A stretch of 63,739 nucleotides of DNA, filler included, from Halocafeteria seosinensis (taxonomy: Eukaryota), in the NCBI GenBank assembly GCA_001687465.1. It is 6 parts of 6 records of this genome, joined end to end, with 100 filler letters (N's around TTAATTAATTAA, not from the genome) between each part and the next. Parts side by side here need not be neighbours in the genome. Positions count along the whole stretch, not along the records: positions 1 to 3,030 come from LVLI01000137.1; positions 3,131 to 31,202 come from LVLI01000139.1; 4 more parts are not named here. One strand, 5' to 3'. A program made the position numbers and the translations under genes. The notes beneath the pieces were generated by a model. The model saw only the letters and a list, made by a program, of their open reading frames with translations. It did no database searches and had not been told where the DNA came from. The number at the start of each line of letters is the position of its first letter. Within the stretch, counting starts at the first letter, position 1. This document shows positions 3,001-31,202 of the stretch, in pieces.

Positions 3001-3281
3001 GATACGCTGCGACCTCCCGTGCGGTCAACANNNNNNNNNNNNNNNNNNNNNNNNNNNNNNNNNNNNNNNNNNNNTTAATTAATTAANNNNNNNNNNNNNN
3101 NNNNNNNNNNNNNNNNNNNNNNNNNNNNNNGTACCGGCCTTGCCAGTGTGACCACCCTGACAAGACACTCTGATGTGTCCGCCCGAACCTTTGGCCTGTC
3201 TCTCTATCGTACAAAAGTCAGATGTACGATTTTCTTGGGTGGCGACCGGAAGGTATAAAATTTTTTTTGGAATAGAGATAT

Positions 3282-3773
3282 ATGAACGTGGAAGATACAA
3301 ACGTAATACATGTGGATAATTTTGGAACGGTTGGCGACGGACACACCGACGATGCTCCGGCAATTCAAAGGGCATTAAATTCCCTACCGTCTAATAGGGG
3401 TTTTAAACTAATGTTTGGCTCAAAAAAATATTATATATCCCATCCACTTTATATCACGGCAGATGGTGTTGAAATAAATGGTGGTAGAATTCTAAGAAAA
3501 GAGGGGAACAAACCATATCTAACATGCTTGGGAAACAAATGTAAAATTTTGAATTTATTGTTAGAGACATACGAGGAAGAACCGACCCTTCCACGGCGGA
3601 TATGGAATTACGTGAAAGGCAAATACCGTACATTACAAGATAAAATAACGCCAACACAAGACGTTGAATATGAGGATGATGATAGTCAGAGCGAATGTGA
3701 TTGTGGCAGGGATAGTCAGAGCGAATGTGAATGCGATTGTGATTGTGATAGCCAGAGTGAATATGGCGACTAA
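3282..3773 (+). CDS. Short protein with a pectate-lyase-3/beta-helix N-terminal cap and an acidic Cys/Asp repeat tail
   Basis: VDNFGTVGDGHTDDAPAIQRALNSL is the typical FGAxGDGxTDDxxAIQxA start of tailspike beta-helices. The tail has repeated DSQSECDC. Confidence 0.6.
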   Translation: MNVEDTNVIHVDNFGTVGDGHTDDAPAIQRALNSLPSNRGFKLMFGSKKYYISHPLYITADGVEINGGRILRKEGNKPYLTCLGNKCKILNLLLETYEEEPTLPRRIWNYVKGKYRTLQDKITPTQDVEYEDDDSQSECDCGRDSQSECECDCDCDSQSEYGD

Positions 3774-3795
3774 AACGGGATGGGTATATATAGAA

Positions 3796-4191
3796 ATGGA
3801 TCAAGAGTTATGGAAGAAATTAGAACAGGTACAAGACGAGCAGGAATTCTATCAAAAGAGCGGGACTCTTTCGCTATACAAAAACCCATGGGAAGATATC
3901 GCCCCATCTCTTGTAGGGTATTTCCCTTGGCCAAATGGCCGACTCAATTACAATCAGGTAATGGCCAATTATCCCCACTTTCAAGGGACAATTGTGATAC
4001 CACCATCGCCGTTTTTAACAGAAGATATTGTCCGGCAACGCCATCCGGTCAAACAGGTGGAAACCCTTCGTGTTCATTGCCCAACCTGTCAAACAAGGGA
4101 TATCATCCCTCAGCAAGTCTGTGACAATACGGAACACCACGTATGTCGGCAATGTCGTCCTATGTTGGAAACATGCCCTTTATGTTTTTGA
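3796..4191 (+). CDS. C-terminal RING-like zinc-finger protein
   Basis: CPTC..C....HHVCRQC......CPLC spacing. Start moved from 3664 to the ATG at 3796, which follows TATATAGAA. Confidence 0.55.
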   Translation: MDQELWKKLEQVQDEQEFYQKSGTLSLYKNPWEDIAPSLVGYFPWPNGRLNYNQVMANYPHFQGTIVIPPSPFLTEDIVRQRHPVKQVETLRVHCPTCQTRDIIPQQVCDNTEHHVCRQCRPMLETCPLCF

Positions 4192-4217
4192 TTTTTTCGC
4201 CCCACCGAATATAGACC

Positions 4218-4442
4218 ATGGTGATGCGAACGAGTCTTCATGTTGCGTGTTTTAAAGTGACCTTTTTCCAAGGCGGAGGCGAGTCGAACCAGTTGTGCGA
4301 GGATGTCATCAGTTCTCAAAGCGAATTGGAGGAATTTCAGAATTTGTGCGAAGATCTAGCCGAACAGGACGTGGATGACTGTGATTTTAGTTACGAACTC
4401 TACTTTGAGATCATATGCTTTTGTGGATCTTCAACCGCCTAA
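4218..4442 (+). CDS. Small acidic hypothetical protein
   Basis: 74-aa ORF preceded by AATATAGACC, filling the space between neighbouring genes. Confidence 0.45.
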   Translation: MVMRTSLHVACFKVTFFQGGGESNQLCEDVISSQSELEEFQNLCEDLAEQDVDDCDFSYELYFEIICFCGSSTA

Positions 4443-4507
4443 GTTCTGGTGTATGTTCCCTGAGATTATTTCGGATAAAAATGTTTTACCCGAATGGTAT
4501 ATAGGAA

Positions 4508-5206
4508 ATGACAGATACAGAAGAATGTGCCCCACCATCACCTCTAAAGGTTTCCCTTCACGATCCCATAGGCCGTGATTTTATGATTCGGACGATCTAT
4601 AGAAAGCCCGATGATGGGTTGTTTTTCCGTGTCGATTTAAAAGACCCTGATGATAGGGAGTTAAGATTAACCGACGAGATGGAGAATGAGATGTATGAAT
4701 CAATCAGACGAATACAAGTACGGCGTCGGTTTCGGTTTGATGATCTCTGTTGTGTTTTCTATCATCCTACCTACCATGTGTTTGTTGTAATGGAAAATCA
4801 TACCATCTACAACCACCTTACATTCACACTTAAAGATCTTGGCTTCCTTGATGTAACAAAAGAACCAGCCGGTGATTTGAAATATTTTTTGATTATGGCG
4901 ATGATTCTACCACGGAAAGAATATTATTTTGACACTGGAAAAGACCCTTCATTTATGGATCTAATGAATCATTCCAAATACCGTGACAGACTATTTCAGT
5001 CTTTTTTGGAACAAAACAATCAGACAGATGATGAATGCCCTTTTTATTGCTATGATGTCTATTGTTTCACGGATCATTTTCGTTATCAAGAATGTAAGCC
5101 ATCAGATGGTCACGATTCCATTTTGAGACGCACTGTGACAGCAAACCACCATTGTCCCAGATGGTTACGAGGTATGATGATGGCCTTGTGGGAGATTTGT
5201 ATGTAA
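4508..5206 (+). CDS. Hypothetical viral protein
   Basis: 232-aa ORF with TATATAGGAA directly upstream of the ATG. No recognised motif. Confidence 0.65.
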   Translation: MTDTEECAPPSPLKVSLHDPIGRDFMIRTIYRKPDDGLFFRVDLKDPDDRELRLTDEMENEMYESIRRIQVRRRFRFDDLCCVFYHPTYHVFVVMENHTIYNHLTFTLKDLGFLDVTKEPAGDLKYFLIMAMILPRKEYYFDTGKDPSFMDLMNHSKYRDRLFQSFLEQNNQTDDECPFYCYDVYCFTDHFRYQECKPSDGHDSILRRTVTANHHCPRWLRGMMMALWEICM

Positions 5207-5238
5207 TAAAAAATTTATGATTCATCCCAATATATAGG

Positions 5239-5616
5239 ATGAGTCACCAACCCACAATACTAGAGGAAGACCTGACCAAAATCAGCCGAGAGACCCTCTT
5301 AAAAGAGGCGACATATCAGGACAATGACACCCTAGGCAAGATAATCCTTAAATTGCGGGATTCCATCGGCCGAGACACGCCGGAAATCCAAGAGCGAATC
5401 AACAAAGTGTATGATATTTTTATCAAACGCAAACTAGCGTATCTATTGGAACAGATCCAAGAGGACAATCCACAGATGGTAAAGAAAGCCATTGAAAACA
5501 ACAAGATGTCCCTCCCGTCCGAATATATGGATGGGGTCGCCGACGACACCCAAAAGCAGATTGATAAATTGATTTCTTCCTATGGCCAGAAAGAAAAGAA
5601 AGAAAAGAAAAAATGA
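5239..5616 (+). CDS. Hypothetical helical protein with Lys-rich C-terminus
   Basis: 125-aa ORF with TATATAGG directly upstream of the ATG. Confidence 0.65.
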   Translation: MSHQPTILEEDLTKISRETLLKEATYQDNDTLGKIILKLRDSIGRDTPEIQERINKVYDIFIKRKLAYLLEQIQEDNPQMVKKAIENNKMSLPSEYMDGVADDTQKQIDKLISSYGQKEKKEKKK

Positions 5617-5647
5617 TTGAAAATATATGATGGTTTCATATATTTTT

Positions 5648-6766: not shown

Positions 6767-7768
6767 ATGGAAGAGCAAATCAAAAACAAACTATGCGAAG
6801 GGCGAAAACCGCAATCTGGGAAGCAATATTTCTACAAGGTCAGAAAAGTCGTGTCAGAGGTACTCAACGACCAATGGGGCGACTCCTTTGACGAGTTGGT
6901 GGATCTCTTATACAACAAACGCAACGAGGTATGTGTCTGGATTCAGGTCAATACATCGGATAACACGGTCGCCACCTTCTTCCGCTCCGTTTTGGTGGCG
7001 GTGGAAATCATCAAAGCCAACTGTTCCGACGACAAACAAGAGAAAATTGAAATGGTACTAGATTTGATTCGCAAGTTCTATTTCAAAGCCAAGGGAACGG
7101 AATCCAACGCCAATGAATACCGAGAGCCCACCGACGAAGAGATCCGAAATCGGATTTTGCCCAAGGATCTGATCAACAAATTTGAAGAACTCAAGAAGAA
7201 CCTCAAACAGCGTGAAAGTGACAATAAGCCATTCAAGTTGGTCAAATGGAAACAATACGTGGTCATCGCCATATACCGTTTCTTACCGCCCATCCGTGGG
7301 CAGGAAATCTTTACGCTTCGGATCAGTTCCAATGGCGATTATCCAAGCACCGGCAATTGGCTGGATTTGAAAAATTGGCAAATCGTCTGCCGAGATCATA
7401 AAACGAGCAACAGTTACGGAACACATACCGTGGATATCCACAATCGGGAACTCCAATACATCATCCGAAACTATCTGAAGAAAGCCGGTTTGGGAGATGG
7501 CGATTTGTTCATGCCCAAGTCTCTGAACAAGAAAGAGACACCCCACAACAGCCGGTGGTTTTCGGACACACTCAAAGCGACCATCGGATGTGGCACACAG
7601 ATGTTACGACAGACCTATGTCGCTTTGTTTCTAGAGGATCTGGAACAACGCAAAGTCAATAAAGAGGTCGATCAGAGTTTCGTCAATCAGAAACGAAAGG
7701 AAATCGCCACCATAATGGGTCATTCGGTGGGTACCCAAGAGACTGTATATTCCAAATTCCGTGAATAA
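6767..7768 (+). CDS. Tyrosine recombinase/integrase
   Basis: Catalytic motifs in order: PPIRGQE (R), DHKT (K), MLRQTY (xxR), MGHS (H), ETVYSK (Y). Confidence 0.88.
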   Translation: MEEQIKNKLCEGRKPQSGKQYFYKVRKVVSEVLNDQWGDSFDELVDLLYNKRNEVCVWIQVNTSDNTVATFFRSVLVAVEIIKANCSDDKQEKIEMVLDLIRKFYFKAKGTESNANEYREPTDEEIRNRILPKDLINKFEELKKNLKQRESDNKPFKLVKWKQYVVIAIYRFLPPIRGQEIFTLRISSNGDYPSTGNWLDLKNWQIVCRDHKTSNSYGTHTVDIHNRELQYIIRNYLKKAGLGDGDLFMPKSLNKKETPHNSRWFSDTLKATIGCGTQMLRQTYVALFLEDLEQRKVNKEVDQSFVNQKRKEIATIMGHSVGTQETVYSKFRE

Positions 7769-7798
7769 GCCGAACATAATAATGACTTTGTTTCATTA

Positions 7799-8278
7799 TT
7801 ACAGCGGACTGCCACAGGTTTCACAGGGAAGCAAATCATAATTGATATACCGACCATTGAACAAACGACAATGGCGGTATTTGGCACCACAGTTTTTACA
7901 TGGGTTGGGGTGTGGGGATGTTCCCACATGACATTCCATAGCGAAATGTTGATTAGAACCACAATAGAAGCAACTTTGGGCAATGGATCGTAAGGTATGC
8001 TTGGCTCGTTGCCGATCAAAATCGGACAGAAAAATGGTACAAAATGACCCACCACGGACGTTATCAATTCCATGTTCGGCCATGTAGCGTAAGGTCATGT
8101 TTTCTTCGTCAAAATAATCGCCCTCAAAGGTTTCTTCATGACACACCGGCGTATAATAATGTGTCCAAGCCGACCCCGTGCCTTCAAAGTGCTTATCTAG
8201 TCGTTTTTCCATGGTTTGCCGATCTTTGGAATAGCCGACATAGTATTTGTCTTCCACGAGTCGTAAGACGTAAATCAT
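7799..8278 (-). CDS. GIY-YIG nuclease with C-terminal zinc knuckle
   Basis: MIYVLRLVEDKYYVG...RLDKH...SAWT...DEE..TLRYM...GIDNVRGG, then CFYCGSNQHFAMEC (CCHC). The start at 8278 follows TATAGAAGA. Confidence 0.85.
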   Translation of the reverse strand: MIYVLRLVEDKYYVGYSKDRQTMEKRLDKHFEGTGSAWTHYYTPVCHEETFEGDYFDEENMTLRYMAEHGIDNVRGGSFCTIFLSDFDRQRAKHTLRSIAQSCFYCGSNQHFAMECHVGTSPHPNPCKNCGAKYRHCRLFNGRYINYDLLPCETCGSPL

Positions 8279-8340: not shown

Positions 8341-8673
8341 TTAGGATTCGCTTTCCTGATACCTCTGACAGATCTTGGTCTTCTGATGATTGGGCAAATA
8401 CCAACCGGACACCGTCCGACCACAATACTGACAGGTTTGACGTCCCTTCTGGTGATAATACGCCCGAATCTTTTCGGCGTTGGAATCGTAAATCCGATCC
8501 CGACGGGGTTTCCGATAGCCAAAGCGACACAAATGCGTTTTCTTATGGTTATAGATTTGCGAACGGGTGATCATCCGGCCACAGTTGGTACATTCCACTT
8601 TCTCTTTCAATTTGTCAAGCACTTTGCTCCGATTGCGTTGATACCATGATGGTTTCGTCTCTTGATCATCCAT
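8341..8673 (-). CDS. Small protein with two C2HC zinc fingers
   Basis: CTNCGRMITRSQIYNHKKTHLC and CQYCGRTVSGWYLPNHQKTKIC. Confidence 0.75.
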   Translation of the reverse strand: MDDQETKPSWYQRNRSKVLDKLKEKVECTNCGRMITRSQIYNHKKTHLCRFGYRKPRRDRIYDSNAEKIRAYYHQKGRQTCQYCGRTVSGWYLPNHQKTKICQRYQESES

Positions 8674-8746: not shown

Positions 8747-10546
8747 TTACTTGAGACCGGTCAGTTTGCTAACGGCTGCATCGGCTCCTTTATCAATGGC
8801 TTTCTTGGCGACTTTGTTTCCGACCTTGGAGACACCATGACCCAGTTGTCCCAAGAGGTTTTTCTTCTTGCCACCCACCTTACGATCCGGTGGGACAGAT
8901 TCGTCCCAGATACGAGCATTATACACGTCGTTCTGTGTTAAGAAGCCCCAGAAGGTCTCGGACACGCCTTGGCTGTTGTACAAGAATTCTGAATCCAAGA
9001 GAATCACCTCTATTTCAATCTCATTGGGGGCTTGTCCCGTCTGATCGAAGATTTCCACAGTAAATTCCAAATTTGTATGGACCGACACACCAGAGGCCAG
9101 ACCGGCTTCCAGCGGAATGTCTTCTCCAAAATCGAACACCAATGGAGCGGACGTCAATGGAATACGGTTGCCTTGATGAGACAGCCCGACGCCACGGAAG
9201 GTGTCCCACGGGACGGGGATGTATTTCCTCACCGTACTAAAGATATCGCCCACATTGAAGGTATTTAGCAGGTTGGTCTGATTGCCCACTCGAATACTGA
9301 CCGATTCGGGGACGAAATGGTAATCAGCATCCTGTGGTTTCAGGTCTTGGCGACGAGGACGGATGGATACGATTCCCTTATCCGGAATACTACCGATCTG
9401 AATCTGATCGGAACGGACTGTACAACGGTTGTTTTGCCAATTGGGGGACACCGTTTTGGGATAGGAATCAAAGCGATACATCGGAAGGGTATTGACTTTA
9501 CTCTTCATGGAATCCGGCAAGAGATATGGCATCTCCATGGATTGATAGTGAAGTTGTGGGTTTACAAAGGGCGTGTTCGATCCACCATAATCTTCCGCCG
9601 TGACTTCAAGCGTAACATCCGAATCGCCAATCTTCCCACCATTCTGAGAATTACAGTTACGGATGAGTTTCGGATCGGTCACGGTATCCAGATTCAAGCG
9701 AAGTTGTTTGATGCCAAAAAGACCGGGCCCGTTATCCATGCCATTTTCTCCGTTGTATAACAGTGGGCTAATCCATGGTGTCGCTTCCAAATAATATTTG
9801 ACATAGATGGTAAAATAGTTATCCGGGTCCAAGCCACCAGCGTTGTCTAATTGAATTTGTGTCGCTTTGCCATTGACACCATTGACACCCTTGATGGTGA
9901 CGTTATTGTTGTTTCCAGTCGAATAACTATCTGGATCACCCAAGTCGGTTCCATCGGGTTTCGTAAAACCGACTGGCAAGAAAGCACCGTCAGGGACTTG
10001 CTGGGACTGTAAGGTCATACCATCATACCCCTGTAGAGGGCTACTGTTGGAATTACCGGCGTCATCGTAGTTCAAGATCCCCAAATCAATATTATTGGGA
10101 CCCGTGTATTTGTTGGCGTTACATTCCTCGTACATGGCAAGGTTCTGGGCTTGGAATTGCTGACTGAGGTCAACGGAAATTTGCTCGTTGTTGATGGTCA
10201 TCCGTGGGCTGTCCCACAGTCGGTTTAAAGCATGGTCTCGGAGAGCGAATGCGTTGGGCACAAAAATATTTCTATTCCTAGGCAAATTGGCATTCCTCAC
10301 ATAAACGGTCATCTTGTGAATATAATAGGTGGACAACCGCATATCACGGCGAATCAGAGTGTCATAACTGGGTGGATCCACTTGAAACTGAAGCCCACGC
10401 TTACTTGAACTCGTGGGATCGACGTCAAAGCCGTTATAATTGCGTACGCTGGAGGTGGTCTTATACTGCGGATCCATCGGCTTCGCTACCTGCGGGAAAT
10501 CTTGAAAAATGGTTGGCCTGAAGTTATCGTTCTGTATGAGTGACAT
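8747..10546 (-). CDS. Virophage major capsid protein (double jelly-roll)
   Basis: 599 aa, beta-rich. N-terminal QFQVDPPSYDTLIRR, FALRDHAL and QIGSIPDK resemble conserved virophage MCP blocks. Has a C-terminal diglycine plus basic tail and lies directly downstream of the penton gene. Confidence 0.88.
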   Translation of the reverse strand: MSLIQNDNFRPTIFQDFPQVAKPMDPQYKTTSSVRNYNGFDVDPTSSSKRGLQFQVDPPSYDTLIRRDMRLSTYYIHKMTVYVRNANLPRNRNIFVPNAFALRDHALNRLWDSPRMTINNEQISVDLSQQFQAQNLAMYEECNANKYTGPNNIDLGILNYDDAGNSNSSPLQGYDGMTLQSQQVPDGAFLPVGFTKPDGTDLGDPDSYSTGNNNNVTIKGVNGVNGKATQIQLDNAGGLDPDNYFTIYVKYYLEATPWISPLLYNGENGMDNGPGLFGIKQLRLNLDTVTDPKLIRNCNSQNGGKIGDSDVTLEVTAEDYGGSNTPFVNPQLHYQSMEMPYLLPDSMKSKVNTLPMYRFDSYPKTVSPNWQNNRCTVRSDQIQIGSIPDKGIVSIRPRRQDLKPQDADYHFVPESVSIRVGNQTNLLNTFNVGDIFSTVRKYIPVPWDTFRGVGLSHQGNRIPLTSAPLVFDFGEDIPLEAGLASGVSVHTNLEFTVEIFDQTGQAPNEIEIEVILLDSEFLYNSQGVSETFWGFLTQNDVYNARIWDESVPPDRKVGGKKKNLLGQLGHGVSKVGNKVAKKAIDKGADAAVSKLTGLK

Positions 10547-10589: not shown

Positions 10590-11867
10590 TTAGCGTTCTT
10601 CCACCTCTTTGTTTTGGAAGACCAAACCTAGATGAGCCGTTGATTGGTTAGGTAGATCAAGAGGGAACAACTGAGACGTGAAGCGATCTCGATAGTAAAA
10701 CTGGACTCGGATTTCACGCAACGGTTTGTTATTGGTGCTCTGGATGGACAGAAACGTCCATTCATTGGCAATGAACAGCATATTCTGTTGCCATGCAGCC
10801 GGATTGCTCTTGTCAATGGTAAATTCACTGATGATATCTTGGCTATGATCTTTGGCCACTTGCCCCAAATTGCCATAGCGATTCTTGGAATACTCGATGG
10901 GTGCCGTCTGAAGCGTCGGAATGATATTCATGTTTTGTGATACCACGGCAATGGATTCCACCGGCGACCAATACCGTCCCAAGGCCGGAAACTCTTGGAT
11001 CATTTGGTAATAGGGCGGTGATGTTGTCTGCGGTGTTCCTCTCTTTGGGTTAATAAATTCTACATGGCGTCCAAATTGGGATCTGAATAGAATCTCAAAC
11101 TGGCCTTCGCCGTTTAGAATCGTATCCTTTTCCACATAACGCCATGGCAGATTGGAAAAGACATTGTACGTATTCTGGTCGAAATAGAGATTCCATTGTT
11201 CTGTAACATTGCCGTCAGTATTCTTCCTATTATTGCTATCGCCCCATCCGTTCAACGGAGCATAGCAAGTGATCCGGTTATTGATTGGGTCATAAGACAA
11301 AAACGGATGTTCTTGGGCTTCCAGTTTCGTTGAACCGCCCACCGCACTTCGTACGTTGTCAAACGCTGTTTGGATGGCCGAGTTAAACATTTCAACCACG
11401 TGGTCAATGGAGTAACACCGGTAAAATTCATCGCCGGTCTTGGTGGCGATGGGCTCTGCTACGTCGGTTCGTTGGGGAATAAACGGCACATTCACCGTTC
11501 GGGTGGTGGTTGTGGGAGTCCCTTGAAGATCTTGGGTCGTTTCCACCGTCACACGATAAATTCCCTCGGTGGCCGAATTCTGTGTGGTGTAAAAGTGAAA
11601 AATAGGCATGTTGGCCGTTGCCCCGTCCAATGAAAACTTCTTGACCGCTAATTTATAATCGCTAGGATTTTCCAAAATGGGCGTTTGGCTGGTTTCCAAA
11701 AACTCACAGGGTGGATTCTTACCATCAAACATGGTGCCTTGGGTTTCATGATTGATAATGGCTAGATCCACATAGATATAATTGGCTGGATCGCTTTCCT
11801 CTGTCTTCTCCGTGTTGTAATGATGGGTAAATGAGCCTTCTGAGGTATTGAATTTGACTTTCGGCAT
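10590..11867 (-). CDS. Virophage minor capsid protein (penton)
   Basis: YIYVDLAIIN...F.ETSQTPILENPSDYKLAVKKFSL...MPIF N-terminus and PLREIRVQFYYRDR C-terminus. Canonical penton-then-MCP gene order. Confidence 0.88.
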   Translation of the reverse strand: MPKVKFNTSEGSFTHHYNTEKTEESDPANYIYVDLAIINHETQGTMFDGKNPPCEFLETSQTPILENPSDYKLAVKKFSLDGATANMPIFHFYTTQNSATEGIYRVTVETTQDLQGTPTTTTRTVNVPFIPQRTDVAEPIATKTGDEFYRCYSIDHVVEMFNSAIQTAFDNVRSAVGGSTKLEAQEHPFLSYDPINNRITCYAPLNGWGDSNNRKNTDGNVTEQWNLYFDQNTYNVFSNLPWRYVEKDTILNGEGQFEILFRSQFGRHVEFINPKRGTPQTTSPPYYQMIQEFPALGRYWSPVESIAVVSQNMNIIPTLQTAPIEYSKNRYGNLGQVAKDHSQDIISEFTIDKSNPAAWQQNMLFIANEWTFLSIQSTNNKPLREIRVQFYYRDRFTSQLFPLDLPNQSTAHLGLVFQNKEVEER

Positions 11868-16602: not shown

Positions 16603-16669
16603 ATATATGTGGTTCAGACATTTTTCATATCCCCCCACCATAATAAATCGTACCTTTGAAGGAAGTTCG

Positions 16670-17034: not shown

Positions 17035-17092
17035 AGTTTTTCTTCATAAAGAAATTGACTTAAAAATAATTTGTGTCTATAGAATATAACCC

Positions 17093-21649: not shown

Positions 21650-22528
21650 ATGGACGAAGCGTTGCGTGGAGTGTTTGATCAAATCAGCGAATCGGCCAAA
21701 GCCAAGAAAGAGCGGAAGCAAGAGAGAAACCAGACAGCAGATATCTCAGACACCGGTTTTGATACGACGCAAGAAAGCAAACCACGAGTCTGTAAGAGTC
21801 CGAATGCCTCCACCTTTTTCCAAGTCGCCCAAGCATCGTATCAAAAACCGAAGGAACGCCCTCAGATTATCAACCAATGGTGGGCGAAGGTACAAGGGTT
21901 TCAGACGCCAACCTTTACCGCCTATGAAGACCGGCAAAATGATGTCTATTTGATCGGGTATCGGGGCACCGTGGTTCAATCGGTCACCGACTTGACGGCG
22001 GATCGTCGGATCATGTTCAATCGGTTAAACGAATCCGACCGGTACCAGAAAGATCTACGAACCACGTCTAAATTCTTGGAACGGTTTGGCCGAGGCGAAT
22101 GTATTTTCACGGTCGGCCATTCACTAGGTGGAGCGGTACAACTTCAGATCCAACGGGATTTAGACCACTTTGCCAAAGGCGGTCGTGGATTCAATTCTGC
22201 GTTACAACCAAAAGATCTGGTACGCCGTCCCAAAAACTACGAGTTTTGGTTTATAGCAGGGGATCCTTTATATTCCCTCTCTGGACGCTTTTTGAAGAAA
22301 AATTTGTTCGTCTTCCCTCAGGTATCGAAAAAAGCATTACAAAATCACAGCCTTGAGAATTTCAAGGGACTGAAGAAGACCGACGCCACCAACAAGAAAC
22401 GGGGTGGTGGCCGACGGAAACCCAATTTGGATGATTTGGTCAAGTTGGGACTCATTACCAAGAGTGATAAGCAACAGATTAACAATGATCCGTGGAAATT
22501 GGTGGAGATATTCAAGCAGGGACAGTGA
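21650..22528 (+). CDS. Class 3 lipase-like alpha/beta hydrolase
   Basis: IGYRGT...DLTAD, nucleophile elbow VGHSLGG, GDP (Asp) and NHSL (His). Confidence 0.9.
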   Translation: MDEALRGVFDQISESAKAKKERKQERNQTADISDTGFDTTQESKPRVCKSPNASTFFQVAQASYQKPKERPQIINQWWAKVQGFQTPTFTAYEDRQNDVYLIGYRGTVVQSVTDLTADRRIMFNRLNESDRYQKDLRTTSKFLERFGRGECIFTVGHSLGGAVQLQIQRDLDHFAKGGRGFNSALQPKDLVRRPKNYEFWFIAGDPLYSLSGRFLKKNLFVFPQVSKKALQNHSLENFKGLKKTDATNKKRGGGRRKPNLDDLVKLGLITKSDKQQINNDPWKLVEIFKQGQ

Positions 22529-22558: not shown

Positions 22559-25003
22559 ATGGCAGTTAGTTCAATCATCAATCGGAACACGGCGAAAATT
22601 TATGAACATCTCATTCCCGACATATCAGCGGGGGCGTCGTTGTCGTCCGTCACGGTGGCGTCGTCCAGTATGTCGCAAGATATCAAAGACAACGCCGACT
22701 ATACCTGTGATGGAACGGATGATCAAGAGGAAATTCAACAAGCCATCAATCAGGTCAATAATGAAGGTGGTGGCCAAGTCCAACTAAGCGGAGGGACATT
22801 TTCGGTTAATACACAGGAGGGGCAATCCTACGCCATTCAGATGCTCCATGGTGTCCGTTTGCGTGGTGAAGGACGAGGAACGACTACCATTCAGAAAGAC
22901 CAACAGGATGATGGCAGTCCTCAAGATATTTTCCTCATGGGCAATGACAGCAGTATGTCTATTACCGGATTGACGGTGGATGGTGTGGGATTAAACTATA
23001 CCAATTCTTGTATCGAAGTGTCGCAATCGCATAAGAGTTCGGTCATTGATGTGGAATGTACCAATGGGATTACCGGTTTGCTTGTCCAAGGAACATATGA
23101 GTTTGCCTTTAGTCACTTGTTTTTTTCGAAGCACGACCAACAATCCATGTTCGTTGGCAATCAAGTGGGAAGTGGAAACAATATTGATGGATCCGACCAA
23201 TACTCCCCCATTATTCGGGACGTCCATATAAATGAGAATGAAGACGTGGATATGGGCAATGGCAATTTCCCCAACCCCAATCAGGGGATACGAATCAAAG
23301 GGCGGAATATCCAAGTATCCGATGTATTTATCGCAGGGTGTCAAAAATTTGGAATTTGGATTCAGGGCAAACGCAACTTGGTGAGCAATATCCGAGGCCG
23401 TAAGATCGGGGACAAAACCATTTACGTCGATGGATCGCAATCCGGAGATGATATTTGTGAATTTCATCGAGTGGAAAATATCAACGCCACCGAATGCCAA
23501 GGGGATGTTCTTATCCTGAATGAATGCCGACACTGTTCGATCGAAAATGGCTATCTTATGGACTGTGGCTATACCAATCAACAGACGACCCCCCGAAAAT
23601 TTCCGATGAAAATTACTGGGTCAAGTGGCAACATGGCGAATAATAATACACTTCGAAATATCGGAGTCTATCAAGATACCAAGACATATGACTATGGTTC
23701 GACAATATCGTATTTTATATCATTAAATCAATACTCTCAGGATTCGACGGTGGATGGGATTTACATGGATGCCAACGTACGTGGCAACGTATCCGCATCG
23801 CCAATTGATGTGGGGATTCGATTGGACAAAACACGAAATAATTCAATTGGAAACATTGAAGTCAAAAACGTCTCTAAAAGGGGCATAGTATCAATTAACG
23901 GAAAACAAAATAAATTTAATAATCTTACCTTTGAAAATATCGGGGATGGATCATCTGGTCAGAATGCCATGGAATTGGATGGGGAACAAAACGTGACTGT
24001 GGATGGTTTTGCCTTGAATTCCACCTGCTACCGTGCCATATTTGTCCGTAAAGCAACGGGCAGTTCCAATGTTCCCCATGGAGTGAATATCTCGAACGTC
24101 AATATTACTAATTCGGACAGTTTGGGGCTAGACATCCAAAAATGTACCGGCATGATCTTATCGGGAATCCATTATCGTGGAAACGGCAACAGCAGTTCAA
24201 AGGTTATTTCCATTGATAACAGTACGAAAATTAATTTGACCAATCTCATCTTCAACAATATTCAATCGGGGATTTCCATCAGCAATACGGCACAAGATAT
24301 TTTGGTCTCGGGGCTTCAGATCAATCTTTGTCAAGGCGATGCGTTTGAAATCAATGGAGGGCAAAAGGTTTCACTGAGTCATTATTATTTCGACACGGTA
24401 CAATCAAGGGATATCTATGTCCATGGCGATAGCGACATGCTACAGATCACCAATGGGATCAGTTGGCAGAATGGCTTGGATAACCCGACCGAGGGAATTG
24501 TCCAAATCGCCCCATCACAGGTACAAAATGATTTAACTATGGATAATATCCAAATCCTCCGACCTCAGGGAACGGCTCAGCCGACATGTGCCTGTTTTCA
24601 AATCGGAACGAGTGCTTCATCGGATACCTTTGTACGAACGCAAATGAGCAATCTGAAATGTGCCCGTTTGCAAGATGGCCACCGTGCTATGGAGATTTTA
24701 GGCGTCCCCAATTTCCGATTGGTCAACTGTTTCTGGAACTTCCTGACCCAAGACAATGCCGTTGATGGCAAAGTCCGAATTATAGGCTGTCATGATTTCC
24801 TCATGAGCGGATGTATCATGGATATTGATGGATCAGGAACTCATTTCAATAATGGGAATGCTTTATTCATTGAAAACGATAGTGGTGGTCAAGCCCAAAG
24901 AGTCACTTTGACGCAAAACAATATCACGCAAAATAGTGGGGATAATAGCGTCAAAGTGAATACGAGTAACTCTAAACTGGCCAACAATATTGCCAATTTC
25001 TAA
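22559..25003 (+). CDS. Right-handed beta-helix (pectate-lyase-like) fibre/spike protein
   Basis: ADYTCDGTDDQEEIQQAIN...GGQVQLSGGTF...GEGRGTT cap followed by ~700 aa of Asn/Ile-rich parallel beta-helix repeats. Confidence 0.85.
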   Translation: MAVSSIINRNTAKIYEHLIPDISAGASLSSVTVASSSMSQDIKDNADYTCDGTDDQEEIQQAINQVNNEGGGQVQLSGGTFSVNTQEGQSYAIQMLHGVRLRGEGRGTTTIQKDQQDDGSPQDIFLMGNDSSMSITGLTVDGVGLNYTNSCIEVSQSHKSSVIDVECTNGITGLLVQGTYEFAFSHLFFSKHDQQSMFVGNQVGSGNNIDGSDQYSPIIRDVHINENEDVDMGNGNFPNPNQGIRIKGRNIQVSDVFIAGCQKFGIWIQGKRNLVSNIRGRKIGDKTIYVDGSQSGDDICEFHRVENINATECQGDVLILNECRHCSIENGYLMDCGYTNQQTTPRKFPMKITGSSGNMANNNTLRNIGVYQDTKTYDYGSTISYFISLNQYSQDSTVDGIYMDANVRGNVSASPIDVGIRLDKTRNNSIGNIEVKNVSKRGIVSINGKQNKFNNLTFENIGDGSSGQNAMELDGEQNVTVDGFALNSTCYRAIFVRKATGSSNVPHGVNISNVNITNSDSLGLDIQKCTGMILSGIHYRGNGNSSSKVISIDNSTKINLTNLIFNNIQSGISISNTAQDILVSGLQINLCQGDAFEINGGQKVSLSHYYFDTVQSRDIYVHGDSDMLQITNGISWQNGLDNPTEGIVQIAPSQVQNDLTMDNIQILRPQGTAQPTCACFQIGTSASSDTFVRTQMSNLKCARLQDGHRAMEILGVPNFRLVNCFWNFLTQDNAVDGKVRIIGCHDFLMSGCIMDIDGSGTHFNNGNALFIENDSGGQAQRVTLTQNNITQNSGDNSVKVNTSNSKLANNIANF

Positions 25004-25046: not shown

Positions 25047-28000
25047 ATGTCATCACTTCTGACAACGGAAGCCAAAGATTGGGCAAGATATCAGGCCAAC
25101 GCTCATGTGAATATGGGCACCTATCGCCTAGAGAACGTCGGCAATCCAACCAGTTTGGGTCACGTGGCCAGTAAGAGTTATGTGGATACCCGTGCCAGTA
25201 TTCCCCAAATGCTTCAGGGGGCTCGTGCCTATTATTCCTTTGATGACCCGTCGGATTCCTACAATGATTCCATCGGAACGTACGATGGGACGCCGTCCGG
25301 TATCGTGACCATTACCAGCGATGGCAAGATTGCCAACGCCTTTGAAATGGCCGGAACGGAACACTTGAAAGTCGGCGACGCCTTCCATTTCGGTTCCAAT
25401 GATTTTACGATTTCCTTTTGGTATTATCCGACGCAATTGAACAGCAACCAGACGTTGATCCATCAAGGCGATTCGTCCAACCAGTTTTCCATTTACCATA
25501 ATGCCAGTAATTCCCAAATCACATTATTCACGGACGATGGATCCACGGCCAATCTGTCGACCAATTCGTCCTTCGGGACGTTGAACCAATGGTATCATAT
25601 TGTGGTGGTACGAAGCGGGGGTGGAACAGGCCAAATTTATGTCAATGGGACGTTAGAGATTGGGGGATCAGCGGTACGCCCCGGTTCCATTAGTACATCG
25701 GACAGTGGAACCATTGGATTTGATGGGGGAGAAACCTACGCCCGTGTGGATGAAGTCGGGGCTTGGGATCGTATGTTGGGCTCGGATGAAGTGGAGTATT
25801 TGTACAATAATGGCAATGGTACCAATGATTTCCACAAATTTGGCTGGTATTCCTTTCCGGCTCAGCAAGATATCAATTTGAATCAGAATCGGATTACCAA
25901 TCTGGCCGAACCGTCGGCGTCGGGGGATGCCTCGACCAAAGGATACGTCGATACACGGGCTTCTATACCCCAGTTACGGCAAGGAGCACGGGCTTATTAC
26001 TCATTTGAAGGTACCTATGAAGATTCCATTGGGACGCATGATGGATCGGCGAATGGTTCTTTGTCATTTACGCCGGGTAAATTAGGACAGGCCGTTCAAT
26101 TTACCGGAACCAATAACGAATATGTGGATTTGGGAGCGTCCGCCTTGGATCATGGGACAGGTGATTTTACATGGTCATTCTGGTTCAACACCAATGACAA
26201 TACCAAATCCCAAATGTTTATCACGGCTCAAAGGAACAGCAATGATCTTATTTATATTTATTTGACAGCCGGAAATATTAGATTTAAAGCAAAAGATGGT
26301 GGGAGTCCTTCGGATCTAAATACAAGTTTTAGTCCAGCGAATAATACATGGTATTTTGTGACAGCCACCCGAACAGGGTCGTCGGCTGAGGTATTTATTG
26401 ATGGAGTAAGTGATGTCTCAGGCACGTTACCCGCTTCCGACCTGACCGGAAATAAATCTTGGATCGGTGAATTCACCGAATCCAACCTGCCAATGGATGG
26501 TGAAATTGACGAAGTTGGCATCTGGAATCGTGTTTTATCCCCTGAGGAAATTCGTTATCTGTACAACGGAGGCAACGGGACGCAAGATTTTGCCACCTTT
26601 GATTGGTATAGTCGACCGGCTCAATCCACCGTCCATATGAATGGCCATCGGTTGGCGAATGTTGGGACACCAACAGAGAGTACCGATGCCGTGACCAAGA
26701 ATTATACCGACTCATTGGCCGGAATTTCCCAACTTCGGCGTGGGGCTCGTGCCTATTATTCATTTGATGGAACGGATTCCTATGCCGATTCCATCGGGAC
26801 ACATGATGGGACAAATAATGGAACCTCTGTTGTGTCCGGAAAGATTGGAAATGGGATTGAATTTTCTGTCAGTGGAAGTGATACCGTGAATCTGGGAAAA
26901 TCCCTAGATACAGGAACGGGTGATTTTTCCGCTTCAGTATGGATTAAATCGGATTCTGGGGCATCCGAAGGTGATGGTAATGCTGTGATTGNTCAAAATG
27001 TAAGCGGAACTAAGCGATGGATTTTAGAACACTGGCAGAATGGTACATTTCAACTTTACACAGAAGATAGTAACAATAACAAAAGAATCATATCTTCGGC
27101 AAATTACTCTTTTGGCAATTGGTATTTTGTCACTATTACCCGTTCGGGATCGCAAGGAAAAATTTACGTTAATGGTCAATTGGATATTTCAGACACAATA
27201 CAATCAGGTGATATTTCAGGCGGTGGTGATACCAAACTTGGAAGACCTAGTTCTGGTAAAGAAATGGAAGGAATATTAGATGAAATCGGTTGTTGGAATC
27301 GTGTCCTGTCCCTTGAAGAAATCAAATATCTTTACAATAATGGAGCTGGAACTAACGATTTCCAATCTTTTGATTGGTATAGTCGTCCCGCACAAAGTGC
27401 TGTGGATATGAACAGTAACCAAATTAATAATCTTTCTGACCCTACTTCAACCCAAGATGCTGTTTCTCGTAACTACCTAGAAGCTGGTAATATGGCTAAT
27501 GCCATTGATATGAATTCTAAACAAATCAATAATCTTAGTGATCCTACTAGTGCTCAAGATGCTGTTTCCAGAAATTATTTAGAAGTTGGTAATATGGCTA
27601 ATGCTCTGGATATGAATTCCAAACAAATTAATAACTTATCCTCAGCCACTTCTGGAACAGATGCTATTAACCGAAATGATGGTGATGGTAGATTTCTCCG
27701 AAGGGATGGTAACAACACTATGGACGGCACTTTATCTTTCTCAACTGGAAATTCTATTACACTGAATGATACAGCTATGAATGCTGGTTCTAATCAAATC
27801 AACAGTCTCAGTGATCCAACTAGTGCTCAAGATGCTGTCACCCGAAACTATCTAGAAGCTGGAAATATGGCTAATCCTCTAGCTATGAATGATAATGAAG
27901 TTGTAGGAGTAGCAGGGATAACTACTAATACATTAAGTATCAGTGACGATAGTGTTAAATCTCATTCACCGGTTAACAATCAAGGTGTCTTTCTTGCTCG

Positions 28001-28223
28001 GTCTAGTACTGATGTTATTATGATTTTCTATGATGTAGTCAATGGATCTATTCAAAGTATTTCCCAATTTGGTTCACTTTTCAATACTACAACAGGAAGT
28101 CTAAGTGGAACTACAGGGACTGATGGTAACATAACCATTTCAGCGGATGGTACAAACAATGAAATTGATATCGAAAACCGGTCGGGATCATTAGCTTCGG
28201 TTCGCATATTAAACTTATTCTAA
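25047..28223 (+). CDS. Fibre protein with three LamG/concanavalin-like domains and trimeric stalk repeats
   Basis: Three AYYSF...FT.SFW...WY.....R...Y.NG...DEVG.W.R.L..EI.YLYN domains, separated and followed by MN..I.NL.DP....DA....Y stalk repeats. Confidence 0.88.
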   Translation: MSSLLTTEAKDWARYQANAHVNMGTYRLENVGNPTSLGHVASKSYVDTRASIPQMLQGARAYYSFDDPSDSYNDSIGTYDGTPSGIVTITSDGKIANAFEMAGTEHLKVGDAFHFGSNDFTISFWYYPTQLNSNQTLIHQGDSSNQFSIYHNASNSQITLFTDDGSTANLSTNSSFGTLNQWYHIVVVRSGGGTGQIYVNGTLEIGGSAVRPGSISTSDSGTIGFDGGETYARVDEVGAWDRMLGSDEVEYLYNNGNGTNDFHKFGWYSFPAQQDINLNQNRITNLAEPSASGDASTKGYVDTRASIPQLRQGARAYYSFEGTYEDSIGTHDGSANGSLSFTPGKLGQAVQFTGTNNEYVDLGASALDHGTGDFTWSFWFNTNDNTKSQMFITAQRNSNDLIYIYLTAGNIRFKAKDGGSPSDLNTSFSPANNTWYFVTATRTGSSAEVFIDGVSDVSGTLPASDLTGNKSWIGEFTESNLPMDGEIDEVGIWNRVLSPEEIRYLYNGGNGTQDFATFDWYSRPAQSTVHMNGHRLANVGTPTESTDAVTKNYTDSLAGISQLRRGARAYYSFDGTDSYADSIGTHDGTNNGTSVVSGKIGNGIEFSVSGSDTVNLGKSLDTGTGDFSASVWIKSDSGASEGDGNAVIXQNVSGTKRWILEHWQNGTFQLYTEDSNNNKRIISSANYSFGNWYFVTITRSGSQGKIYVNGQLDISDTIQSGDISGGGDTKLGRPSSGKEMEGILDEIGCWNRVLSLEEIKYLYNNGAGTNDFQSFDWYSRPAQSAVDMNSNQINNLSDPTSTQDAVSRNYLEAGNMANAIDMNSKQINNLSDPTSAQDAVSRNYLEVGNMANALDMNSKQINNLSSATSGTDAINRNDGDGRFLRRDGNNTMDGTLSFSTGNSITLNDTAMNAGSNQINSLSDPTSAQDAVTRNYLEAGNMANPLAMNDNEVVGVAGITTNTLSISDDSVKSHSPVNNQGVFLARSSTDVIMIFYDVVNGSIQSISQFGSLFNTTTGSLSGTTGTDGNITISADGTNNEIDIENRSGSLASVRILNLF

Positions 28224-28287: not shown

Positions 28288-29799
28288 ATGACTGTAGCAA
28301 GGTTGAATCAAATGGATAGAGATTTGATGATTCAACCTCATCCTCCAAGATTAGACTATGGAAAAAATACTAGAGGTTGGGCTGAATATAAGTTTCTGGG
28401 TAGAAATGATAATTTTGCTCAAAAACCTAAAGGATATCATGCTAATCTTTCTAATCCCCTTAATCAACAAGCTTATGATTTAGCTAGAAACAGAATTGAT
28501 ACCAAAAGACGTTTAGATAATGCCCCACATAATAATGTTATTGCTAGTAGTATTGAAGGTCGCTTCTATAACAATCATTCAAATGGTCTTTCTCTGGATA
28601 AAAAAGGAGGGGGTAATAGCCAAAACCCAAATCTTCAGCAAGAACTTTTAAGGTTAAAAAAAAGAAATGCTCAAAACTTTGAACAAGGTGAAGAAAGTGG
28701 TGAAAAAGCCCTCCCCAATCCTAAAAGTATGCCCTTAACTGAAGCTAGAGGTGAAATTCTCCAAATTCAAAATCTTCTTTCAGAATGGGTTTTAGCTGTT
28801 CAAGGTACTAAACCCAAAGTGGATGAAATTAAAACCGAATCTATTCAAAAGGTTTTAACTATGCTCCAAGAAAACGGTCAAAAACTTAAATCAGACCAAC
28901 TCAAGAATTTAATCTCTAAAATTGAAACTATTTTAAGCCAAGCTGATGCTCAAACTTTAAAATCTCATAGGGGTAAATTTCGTTTACTTATAATCATTTA
29001 TCTTTACCTTTTCAAGCTCAAGGAAACTATTAACGTCGAAAATCGTGCTCCCGCTTTGGAAGTTTTCTACGATCAAATAATTAAAGCCAATGGTAACCAA
29101 TTAGGTTCCATGCTCGGTACCAGAGCCAATAAATCTAAACTTCCAGAAAGCAAGTTAAATAGTATTGAAAATGCTATTACCGGAGGTGAAACCGAAGAAG
29201 AAACAAAAGCAAAACAGGAACAAAAGGGCAAACGAAAAGAAAAACTTAACGAAAAATATCTAAATCCCGACGATTTAAGCTCTTATCTCAATCAAACAGT
29301 AGATGAAATTAATAAAGATATGGGAAATACAATCTCGCTAGACATCCTTAGAAATTTTGGTAAAAATGAATTAGGACTAGATCTTAAAACAAACATGACT
29401 AAACCAACAGTAATTGAAAAAATTAAAGAAAAAGCTCAGTCTGATCAAGGAGCATCTGCTGAATCTGGTCAAGCTATGCCTCCAGAAGGAAGTGGTAAAA
29501 AAGGAGGAGGTGCTGTAAAAAATATTAAAGATACTATTAACTTTTTCAAAAAGCTGAACAAGAAAGGTGCTAAACCTAAACACGGGACAAAAACTTTCCA
29601 AGGTGATCCTGACGATTTAATGTTAGCCACCGAAGAAGAAAAGAAACAAATTCGTAAACAACGTGAAAAAGAACGAAAACAAAGTAAAAAGGGTAAGAAA
29701 GGTAAGAAGAAAGGAGGGGGATGTGGAAGATTAGGTACTAAAAAATCTACATATGGTCCTCCACTTCAACACAAAAAAGTTATTCAAAAGCTAAAATAA
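28288..29799 (+). CDS. Lys-rich helical hypothetical protein with three KKGGG motifs
   Basis: 503-aa ORF with a TATATAGGAA leader and AT-rich codon use. Confidence 0.75.
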   Translation: MTVARLNQMDRDLMIQPHPPRLDYGKNTRGWAEYKFLGRNDNFAQKPKGYHANLSNPLNQQAYDLARNRIDTKRRLDNAPHNNVIASSIEGRFYNNHSNGLSLDKKGGGNSQNPNLQQELLRLKKRNAQNFEQGEESGEKALPNPKSMPLTEARGEILQIQNLLSEWVLAVQGTKPKVDEIKTESIQKVLTMLQENGQKLKSDQLKNLISKIETILSQADAQTLKSHRGKFRLLIIIYLYLFKLKETINVENRAPALEVFYDQIIKANGNQLGSMLGTRANKSKLPESKLNSIENAITGGETEEETKAKQEQKGKRKEKLNEKYLNPDDLSSYLNQTVDEINKDMGNTISLDILRNFGKNELGLDLKTNMTKPTVIEKIKEKAQSDQGASAESGQAMPPEGSGKKGGGAVKNIKDTINFFKKLNKKGAKPKHGTKTFQGDPDDLMLATEEEKKQIRKQREKERKQSKKGKKGKKKGGGCGRLGTKKSTYGPPLQHKKVIQKLK

Positions 29800-29983: not shown

Positions 29984-30011
29984 TTTAAATCTCTAAATAT
30001 AAGAGATTTAA

Positions 30012-30563
30012 ATGGTTAATCGTCAATTGATCAAAAAGTTAAAGCATCAAGCTCTGAGCTCTAAACAATTACAAGAAGCTACTAAACAGCAGATTCCTAT
30101 TATCACATATGATGAAGTACCTAACAATAAAACTATATACAATATTTTAAATAACCCTTCTAAAGCGGTTATTATCCTCTATCTCTTTGAAAAGTCTTAC
30201 GGGCATTGGTGTTTGCTGTTAGACCACGGAAAATATATATCTTACTTTGACAGTTACGGTGACTATCCTGACCAAAGTTTAAGTGAAAATACCGTAGCTA
30301 AGAACAAGAAGTTGGGACAATCCCGACCGCGAATTTTAGAGAGTGTTGTCAAAGGAACAAATCCAAAGCCAATTTATTATAATGACCAACAACTTCAGTT
30401 GTTCAAAAATGATAGTCAGACTTGTGGTAGATACGTCTTACTGAGGTACCGTAAAAAACACCTAACGATAAAAGGTTTTATTAACTTTTTAGAAAAAAAG
30501 CGTAATAAATTCGGTCTAAAAACCTTTGATCAAACCGTGAGCTGGCTAACAAAAGATATCTAA
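30012..30563 (+). CDS. Virion maturation cysteine protease (adenain/Ulp1-like)
   Basis: GHWCLL (His), YFDSYG (Asp), QLQ (oxyanion Gln), SQTCGRY (Cys). Confidence 0.93.
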   Translation: MVNRQLIKKLKHQALSSKQLQEATKQQIPIITYDEVPNNKTIYNILNNPSKAVIILYLFEKSYGHWCLLLDHGKYISYFDSYGDYPDQSLSENTVAKNKKLGQSRPRILESVVKGTNPKPIYYNDQQLQLFKNDSQTCGRYVLLRYRKKHLTIKGFINFLEKKRNKFGLKTFDQTVSWLTKDI

Positions 30564-30718
30564 TCACGTTTAACAGATTGAACGCTAAAACCCCTTAATC
30601 TACGTTTAGCAAAGTGCTTAGCTTGTTCAGGGCTAAAAGCATGAGTTATTACTTTTCTTCTTGATATTCCTGTAGGAGCGTTTCGTTTCATCCAAACCAA
30701 ATATCGTTGTTGTTTCAT
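30560..30718 (-). CDS. 52-aa basic protein, paralog of 15276-15434 (not in the ORF track)
   Basis: MKQQRYLVWMKRNAPTGISRRKVITHAFSPEQAKHFAKRRLRGFSVQSVKRD, with leader AATATAGG. Confidence 0.7.
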   Translation of the reverse strand: MKQQRYLVWMKRNAPTGISRRKVITHAFSPEQAKHFAKRRLRGFSVQSVKRD

Positions 30719-30724
30719 CCTATA

Positions 30725-31006
30725 TTATTCTAGGTCGGAAAATATATAATCTAGACAATGTAAAAATCCATTTGGATTTTCAAATGCCAAGTATTCCCAT
30801 ACTGGATAATCATACAATTCCAAATCTTCAAAAAAGTTTTCCCTTTCATCATGTGTATAACTAGTATCTATCTCAAAATATTTTTTAGGTTCCCCTTCAT
30901 CATATATTTTTCTAGCTTCTAAATAAGTGTGACCCCAAGTGTTGACCATATATTCGTAATTCTCGTTCTCTTCTTGTTCTATCAAGTGGTCTTTCATTCG
31001 TCCCAT
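30725..31006 (-). CDS. Acidic/aromatic hypothetical protein
   Basis: 93-aa ORF with AAAATTGA upstream on the same strand. Confidence 0.65.
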   Translation of the reverse strand: MGRMKDHLIEQEENENYEYMVNTWGHTYLEARKIYDEGEPKKYFEIDTSYTHDERENFFEDLELYDYPVWEYLAFENPNGFLHCLDYIFSDLE

Positions 31007-31043
31007 TGTTTTATATTACTTATTATTTTTAAAAATATAAAAA

Positions 31044-31051
31044 TCAATTTT
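31044..31051 (-). promoter_or_regulatory. AAAATTGA motif (mimivirus-type early promoter consensus)
   Basis: Exact octamer ~38 bp upstream of the ATG at 31006. The context is AT-rich, so a chance match is possible. Confidence 0.45.
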
Positions 31052-31162
31052 TTCTTTAATTTTATTTAAATATTAAAAATAGAAGAAATTAATTTTCTTT
31101 TTAACGATTTAAACTAATTATAAAAATTTCTATTTAGAGAAAATATAATAATAAGAATAGGA

Positions 31163-31202
31163 CGCTCAATGACGCCTCGCTCAATGACGCCTCGGTCATT
31201 GT
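31163..31202. repeat. 15-bp tandem repeat at contig end
   Basis: CGCTCAATGACGCCT twice, plus a degenerate third unit running into the gap. Confidence 0.8.

Follow-up and report, generated by a model that had tools for sequence, protein, structure and literature searches.

Results

In our view the 28,072-bp contig at positions 3131..31202 of the DNA analysed here, a stretch of 63,739 nucleotides from the protist Halocafeteria seosinensis (assembly GCA_001687465.1; hereafter the window), is a virophage of the class Maveriviricetes with a Sputnik-type capsid, likely integrated on one of the two homologous chromosomes of its diploid host, one of many diverged members of a family, and would be woken by a co-infecting giant virus. 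The contig has a GC content of 42.2%, is ~92% coding, and contains 24 main open reading frames (ORFs), all free of internal stops. An earlier sequence-only reading had described it as a near-complete and probably functional virophage genome with no obvious decay. The genes named there are all open frames where that reading had placed them, and the catalytic motifs are intact; the frame at 3282-3773, however, is an N-terminal piece. The claims of near-completeness and function went further than the contig allows: terminal repeats are missing, and the end with the protease gene may derive from another copy.

The capsid genes support the assignment. The major capsid protein (MCP; 8747..10546, minus strand, 599 aa) matches the Pfam models Sputnik_MCP_1st (E 4.6e-16, 59.1 bits) and MCP_V20_C (E 3.1e-13, 49.9 bits) at a cut-off of 27, and the penton, or minor capsid protein (10590..11867, minus strand), matches V18-19 (E 2.5e-8, 33.5 bits, cut-off 27). 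A profile built from five MCP sequences has a single match in the PDB, Sputnik V20 (3J26, E 1.6e-10); phmmer alone found nothing for the MCP. Three database relatives of the MCP were recovered, with identities of 62, 54 and 49%, the top one being the EukProt transcript GECG01009207. We take the GECG prefix to denote H. seosinensis, which a literature search did not confirm.

The main criterion for Maveriviricetes is the MCP, together with a virophage-like ATPase and protease recognised by hidden Markov models (HMMs), while a penton and a dsDNA genome of 15-45 kb are expected (PMC9952930). The MCP of the contig is recognised by Pfam models, and its penton and its length of 28,072 bp are also as expected. 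On these sequence grounds the placement of the contig in Maveriviricetes is well supported, and the matches of MCP and penton to Sputnik-family profiles favour a virophage over a Polinton-like virus. A Polinton/Maverick was considered and rejected: an rve integrase is present, but no pPolB frame was found among the ORFs of the contig that were listed and scanned with Pfam.

Two further genes of the capsid and packaging set can be recognised by their motifs. The predicted packaging ATPase (11953..12765, plus strand) is of the FtsK/HerA type, with a Walker A motif GKKGAGKT, a Walker B motif LFDD and RGRQ. The predicted maturation cysteine protease (30012..30563, plus strand), located in a low-GC segment, has the motifs GHW, FDSYG, QLQ and TCG with the residues H65, D80, Q129 and C138. 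Of the quartet on which the sequence-only reading was built, the HMM search for virophage markers thus recovers the MCP and the penton above the Pfam cut-offs, and leaves the ATPase and the protease identified by motifs only, with no family-level match.

The MCP itself has a predicted protease site, KVGG/K at residues 556-560, with a basic tail (pI 10.4) after it, and the diglycine motif ahead of this tail is found in all five aligned homologues. Diglycine cleavage before a basic MCP tail has been demonstrated for mavirus (PMC6048507). Two other basic proteins, inferred from their sequences to be candidate core proteins, contain similar sites: a Gly-rich protein of 187 aa (13819..14382, minus strand) that is rich in GG sites and contains two KVGNKLA repeats resembling the MCP tail, and a protein of 503 aa (28288..29799, plus strand) with three KK-GGG sites, encoded in the low-GC segment.

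The window consists of separate contigs joined by five linkers of the form N44-TTAATTAATTAA-N44. The virophage contig is bounded on both sides, as had been described, but the supposed gaps are such linkers; because the neighbours are separate contigs, their order in the window carries no weight for integration. Four coded runs from one organism and one study, X1 to X4, contain the element, and X1 is DNA-like. The depth comparison covers 13 kb at the left end of the element (3131-16100) and the host contig at 31303-49149. Taken as contig depths, which are not equal to copy numbers, the zero-difference pieces of the element in X1 have values of 48.4, 54.8 and 56.3 among the pieces listed, and those of the host contig have values of 106.1, 111.2 and 100.5; exact pieces of the element thus lie at about half the host depth. 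Of the joints that mark variant copies on the element, 15 are listed and eight are not; ten of those listed have depths of 48-60, three of 36-39 and one of 145.

X1 contains many related copies that are 80-99% identical. The region 3131-16100 is represented there by 832 pieces (253, 226, 202 and 151 in successive identity bands), and a unique host stretch by one 9-kb piece. The occurrence of many distinct copies at half the host depth likely corresponds to hemizygous insertions in a diploid, and the half depth suggests that the insertions are not fixed on both homologues. A companion genome preprint on H. seosinensis gives 46.8% GC and apparent diploidy. The earlier caution that integration is not shown directly stands, as no junction was seen, and the half-host depth in many copies now lends integration indirect support.

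Some related copies lack segments of the element. One copy is without 3247-4193, a region covering the tailspike fragment (joint 3246>4194, depth 52), variant copies are without 6308-6693, and another copy lacks the second GIY-YIG gene (joint 12761>13795 in X2 and X3). This suggests that accessory genes come and go. In runs X2-X4 the GT..AG introns of the host contig are spliced out, so that these runs behave as RNA; in the run records, no holder of the element is listed as RNA. Short zero-difference pieces of the element occur in X2 (13668-14033) and X4 (13919-14214), in a cover of the element by X2-X4 that is patchy and made of contigs, from which expression levels cannot be read. The deepest X2-X4 contigs on the element (up to 319) fall on 7776-8716 and represent a GIY-YIG/Zn-finger paralogue with 95-97% identity and loose ends at 7776 and 8736; this paralogue likely belongs to another element.

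The 283-aa frame at 14414..15265 (minus strand) is assigned by predicted structure and motif to the V21/L544/Mg662 family of proteins with a nucleotidyltransferase (NTase) fold. Searches with the sequence only were blank, with no Pfam, PHROG or NCBIfam match of note, and its closest relative is EukProt GECG01009205 (94% identity). Pol-beta-like NTases are marked by hG[GS]-x(9-13)-DhD together with a third Asp; all eight aligned sequences keep GS-x10-DYD and an Asp further on (KID/KLD). In a Foldseek search of the PDB with an alignment-based model (pLDDT 82.7), all three matches at E<=0.001 were to Mg662 (E 4e-7, TM 0.64), followed by OAS1 and TUT7 at E 0.02-0.1. Mg662 also came first among the 48,161 chains of VIA (Z 15.7, 265 residues aligned, root-mean-square deviation 4.4), and the rows after it were helical bundles covering the C-terminal part only. 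A single-sequence model (pLDDT 52) had no match at E<=0.001, with Mg662 at ranks 18 and 28, and gave no usable match in the Atlas.

Predicted viral structures yielded 18 matches at E<=0.001. They include proteins of YSLV5 and Qinghai Lake virophage, the 442-aa ORF7 of Zamilon, taken as the V21 homologue partly by its length, as well as giant-virus proteins annotated as nucleotidyl transferase, L544-like or V21-like. A 271-aa mavirus protein is also among them, which from its length we presume to be MV14. The protein encoded here therefore has the fold and the motif of the V21/Mg662 family. The fold match to Mg662 is full-length, whereas the two proteins differ in size (365 aa in Mg662, 283 aa here) and share 12-13% identity. 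With its catalytic triad kept, the modelled protein is predicted to be an active enzyme. The link from V21 to a mimivirus transferase is already published (PMC5786535), "nucleotidyl transferase" appears as a gene label in a figure of Bellas et al. (PMC10120064), and MV14 is a mavirus virion protein (PMC8547959, PMC6048507). A link of MV14 to V21 or Mg662 was not found in the literature consulted, which included PMC9952930 with its supplement, PMC6905037, PMC11161782, PMC11464507 and the preprint of Haro et al. and had most subscription papers outside its scope.

A frame of 1173 aa (17384..20905, plus strand) encodes the putative replicase, with an AEP primase at residues ~31-222 (Pfam AEP_C962R, E 9.7e-45), a PolA-like/TVpol-like region at ~385-585 and a superfamily 3 (SF3) helicase at ~800-1130, which is also matched by Pfam. 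An unindexed search with the middle region recovered 672 relatives at E<=0.001; a word-indexed search found nothing. Across an alignment of 21 sequences, GR, DxDxxNxxP, Y..R..K, QxxE and (H)DG vary little or not at all, and we take them to be the named palm motifs of PolA. In the Atlas, the closest cluster with a name is DNA_pol_A (at 0.81), which is no more than a lead, and a profile search of the PDB gave no match; the motifs and the Atlas lead point to a PolA-like domain. Among 40 selected relatives, 29 have D5/SF3 helicase domains (D5_N or DUF5906), three have Herpes_ori_bp and none has AEP. Of the 150 top relatives of the polymerase domain, none matches the AEP part found here and two have more than 150 residues ahead of the polymerase. 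Three PolA-like relatives (P0051, P0126 and P0148) are fused to a Herpes_ori_bp (superfamily 2) helicase in place of SF3.

The layout of TVpol and helicase has been described (PMC3671162), and the replicase appears to combine this layout with an added AEP primase. The earlier naming of the gene as a TVpol-helicase is accordingly apt for its SF3 helicase and, by motifs, for its PolA-like middle domain, but it had overlooked that both sit behind a fused N-terminal primase. Between the integrase and replicase genes lies a non-coding inverted repeat of ~400 bp (16650..17040; folding z -15.8), which is a candidate replication origin: it contains 13 of the 32 copies of the iteron ATGACA/TGTCAT found in the whole contig.

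The motif TATAG occurs within 25 nt upstream of the first ATG in 17 of the 24 ORFs (mean 1.4 and maximum 7 in 10,000 shuffles), with an A/T tract 12-19 nt further upstream. The late promoter consensus of Megamimivirinae has been published (PMC11464507). Allowing three mismatches, we found it in 12 of 27 upstream regions (mean 5.6 and maximum 10 in 500 shuffles), some of the 27 start codons having been chosen by the presence of TATAG; with at most one mismatch it is present in three of the 27. TATAG and its A/T tract thus resemble the layout and the 3' end of the giant-virus late promoter, and the strict match is modest. The CroV/mavirus motif TCTA was rejected as a promoter, being present in 5 of 27 upstream regions with a genome-wide density like that of the host. 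None of the 20 papers listed by a literature search contained TATAG.

The rve integrase (15436..16641, minus strand; ambiguous bases at 16168 and 16171) has DDE motifs, a C-terminal chromodomain and a match to the rve profile (E 1.1e-13). The predicted tyrosine recombinase (6767..7768, plus strand) is recognised by the motif residues R177, K212, R281, H319 and Y328, and the position of the HxxR motif that is normally His reads Gln. A lipase-like alpha/beta hydrolase (21650..22528, plus strand) has the motif GHSLG and a weak match to Hydrolase_4 (E 0.004). All three genes had been named earlier, the recombinase and the lipase being known by motifs or weak matches.

Among the remaining genes, profile matches identify an N-terminal fragment of a tailspike/pectate-lyase beta-helix (3282..3773, plus strand) and a tail-fibre-like beta-helix of 814 aa (22559..25003, plus strand); a fibre-like protein of 1058 aa with three LamG domains follows at 25047..28223 (plus strand). 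A RING-finger protein (3796..4191, plus strand) has a weak match to Sina_RING, and its start was set at an ATG preceded by TATAG. Two GIY-YIG nucleases are present, one with a Zn knuckle (7799..8278, minus strand; Pfam GIY-YIG, E 2.9e-5) and one with Zn fingers (12811..13752, plus strand; TIGR01453, E 4.2e-6). Profile searches further identify a C2H2/Zn-ribbon protein (8341..8673, minus strand) and a Zn-ribbon protein of 74 aa (17093..17317, plus strand).

The composition of the contig changes near position 27,043, with 43.8% GC to the left and 33.4% to the right (log-likelihood gain ~80). The break lies inside the repeat-rich LamG gene, near an ambiguous base at 26,992, and GC at third codon positions (GC3) is 0.20-0.34 in the genes for the 503-aa protein, a 53-aa protein, the protease and a 93-aa protein, compared with ~0.5 in the core. 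The contig is therefore a mosaic, and possibly an assembly chimera. In that case at least two endogenous copies, one supplying the mid-GC body and another the low-GC right end, would have been joined through the LamG repeats, and no single element would have this gene set; such a join would be compatible with integration. The position of the changes in GC and GC3 (from ~0.5 to ~0.2) within a repeat-rich gene beside an ambiguous base, the many 80-99% identical copies in X1 and the caution of Bellas et al. about false consensus in such regions (PMC10120064) all favour an artificial join. The LamG frame, however, is open across the break, GC3 declines gradually from ~26,000, and real recombination is reported in H. 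seosinensis virophages, including a subtype whose ATPase and protease group with another subtype (10.64898/2026.07.28.741278). We regard a chimera as the less probable outcome, although the chance of it is appreciable.

The right end of the contig (31163-31198) consists of 2.4 copies of a 15-bp unit, preceded by an AT-rich hairpin-like stretch at 31029-31113, and may represent the inner boundary of a terminal repeat. None of seven window proteins was present in an exact-sequence look-up in a protein collection, tblastn of five proteins against phage records found nothing, and Rfam had no match across the window. Viral contigs scanned with the MCP, the ATPase, the protease and alignments of the NTase and MCP, and metagenome contigs scanned with the MCP alignment, contained no confirmed related locus.

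The flanking contigs are eukaryotic, with PRP38 and Ric8 matches among 12 ORFs scanned, GT..AG introns and 47-51% GC. The host contig used for the depth comparison starts with a very high-copy repeat of 166-bp period (31303-31600; summed X1 depth ~11,700, also in X2-X4). It also contains two convergent ORFs of 368 and 484 aa at 42000-45600, which have no Pfam match, single-copy depth in X1 and multi-copy flanks, and are nearly uncovered in X2-X4. A 186-bp element at a contig start (49250-49435) recurs 4.7 kb further on (53793-54101), there accompanied by CA runs and a perfect inverted repeat of 63 bp, resembling a miniature inverted-repeat transposable element. A 682-bp inverted repeat (57473-58154 and 59757-60438, 95%) extends from a contig end around 1.6 kb and has the look of a transposon with terminal inverted repeats or of an assembly fold-back. 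Stand-alone RNase H-like ORFs occur at 52861-53376 (RVT_3, E 5e-7) and 61976-62830 (weak RNase_H), the second probably a retroelement fragment, and a 177-bp tandem repeat at 60930-61316 (96% matches) has an open frame on the minus strand.

Discussion

Virophages have already been described in this organism. Bellas et al. put the number of virophage MCPs in H. seosinensis at 74 (PMC10120064), and Haro et al. describe 36 complete integrated virophages in seven subtypes, whose MCPs form their own clade (10.64898/2026.07.28.741278). According to the same preprint, some of these elements carry both RVE and tyrosine recombinase (Yrec) genes, as well as LamG, RING, GIY and PolA-S3H genes, and subtypes 5 and 7 have 44% GC compared with 47-48% in the host. 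The body of our element, with 43.8% GC against 47.2-48.0% in four of the five flanking contigs, is similar. It shares with subtypes 5 and 7 a length of ~25-28 kb, the four core genes, RVE with Yrec, replication genes other than pPolB, the LamG, RING and GIY genes, and membership in a multi-copy diverged family. It differs in that the terminal repeats of those elements are missing, and in that AEP, PolA-like and S3H domains form one frame, whereas the preprint has D5 primase-helicase and PolA-S3H as separate genes. The main text of the preprint does not mention a nucleotidyltransferase, V21, MV14, a lipase or hemizygosity. The element thus fits the H. seosinensis family on every comparable point, and was not matched to a listed copy or subtype.

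The mid-GC EMALE types 5-8 of Cafeteria burkhardae also combine an rve integrase (rve-INT) and a tyrosine recombinase (YR) with a long primase/helicase and no pPolB (Hackl et al., PMC8547959). They too are endogenous virophages of a bicosoecid, with a primase/helicase that perhaps has a polymerase domain and with type-specific promoter motifs. They differ in their gene order (MV14-ATPase-PRO-PEN-MCP), their median length (19.8 kb compared with 28 kb here) and their motif (TCTA in place of TATAG), and our MCP resembles that of Sputnik (V20) more closely than that of mavirus. With Sputnik and Zamilon (Sputniviroviridae) the element shares MCP and penton profiles, a V21 homologue, a PolA-like/TVpol-S3H module, a tyrosine recombinase and a Zn-ribbon protein, but the MCP similarity is remote, the rve integrase, lipase and AEP domain set it apart, and it is longer and of higher GC than the medians of that family (18.9 kb, 31.3%; PMC9952930). 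The mix of Sputnik and Mavirus traits to which the sequence-only reading drew attention had already been published for EMALEs and for H. seosinensis: both the mix and endogenous virophages of this kind are known in bicosoecids. The additions made here are the NTase-fold assignment of the 283-aa protein, the three-domain replicase with its iteron repeat, the TATAG motif and the GC mosaic.

Several observations weigh against an intact, integrated virophage with a giant-virus helper. No host-virus junction or target-site duplication is seen at the contig ends, which both abut linkers. Self-BLAST found no terminal inverted or direct repeat in 3131-31202, so that completeness is not established and the genome ends are not captured. 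The depth comparison concerns the left part only, and X1 is perhaps the source data of the window itself. Library matches of the ATPase are weak, generic AAA/terminase hits to a gene beside penton and MCP; the protease and the tyrosine recombinase have no profile match in the libraries searched. TATAG is not present ahead of the genes for integrase and protease, two copies may be joined in the contig, and a helper virus is not known for H. seosinensis (10.64898/2026.07.28.741278).

After the chimera considered above, the alternative that fares best is an integrated element that is dead or only transposon-like, an old insertion whose GC has been ameliorated and whose helper is gone. The GC near that of the host agrees with this, as do the truncated fibre gene at the left end, the missing terminal repeats and the description of the 44%-GC subtypes as ancient, with very low expression and no giant virus found (10.64898/2026.07.28.741278). 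Against it stand the 24 main ORFs without an internal stop, the ~92% coding density and the intact catalytic and promoter motifs; the half depth suggests that the insertion is not fixed on both homologues, and mid-GC EMALEs are likewise intact (PMC8547959). We consider this rather unlikely. An episomal or virion-borne population, or a provirophage within a giant virus, co-assembled from the culture, would account for a contig linked to host DNA only by linkers, and the encoded tyrosine recombinase is of a type thought to integrate virophages into giant-virus genomes (PMC8547959). For free genomes, however, it would be a coincidence that many distinct copies all have a depth close to half that of the host; a scan of 12 flanking ORFs revealed no giant-virus hallmark, and long reads show the matching family to be integrated (10.64898/2026.07.28.741278), which makes this explanation improbable. 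A Polinton-like virus, for instance a Gossevirus-like one, is most improbable of all: Gosseviruses encode a protease and their MCP model is Sputnik-like, and Polinton-like viruses share replication genes with virophages in H. seosinensis (10.64898/2026.07.28.741278), but MCP and penton exceed Pfam Sputnik-family cut-offs, the MCP profile matches only Sputnik V20 in the PDB, and the best named structural matches of the V21-family gene are virophage proteins.

For an integrated virophage, the gene set suggests the following life cycle. Insertion into the chromatin of the host would be the task of the rve integrase-chromodomain protein, and the tyrosine recombinase may act in excision or in entry into the genome of a giant virus. 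During infection, the promoters composed of an A/T tract and TATAG would be read by late transcription machinery of a Mimiviridae-like kind, and the three-domain replicase would start copying the genome at the iteron inverted repeat that adjoins the replicase gene. The ATPase would fill the capsids, the protease would cut the MCP tail and the basic core proteins at GG sites, and the beta-helix and LamG fibre-like proteins would attach to the surface of the host or the helper. The NTase of the V21 family is a predicted active enzyme, and would be a virion protein if it is equivalent to mavirus MV14.

A more tentative proposal, which we think has the smaller chance of being right, concerns virophages in general. 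The NTase may be an overlooked fifth conserved virophage gene, such that Sputnik V21, OLV5 and MV14 would form one family of packaged, active enzymes shared with giant-virus helpers (Mg662/L544), tailing RNA or DNA ends early in infection or in the helper factory; alongside it, in the present lineage, AEP primase, PolA-like polymerase and SF3 helicase would make up a one-protein replisome acting on an iteron origin.

As the discovery of an endogenous virophage, the element adds little, dozens of elements with the same trait mix having been described in bicosoecids. Its value lies in its individual parts. The TATAG motif could guide a search for the giant virus that helps the element in its likely hypersaline host, and the three-domain replicase with its adjoining candidate origin could be reconstituted in vitro. 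The compact 283-aa protein, with its intact active-site motif, is a handy target for work on the function of an enzyme that is widespread in virophages and giant viruses.

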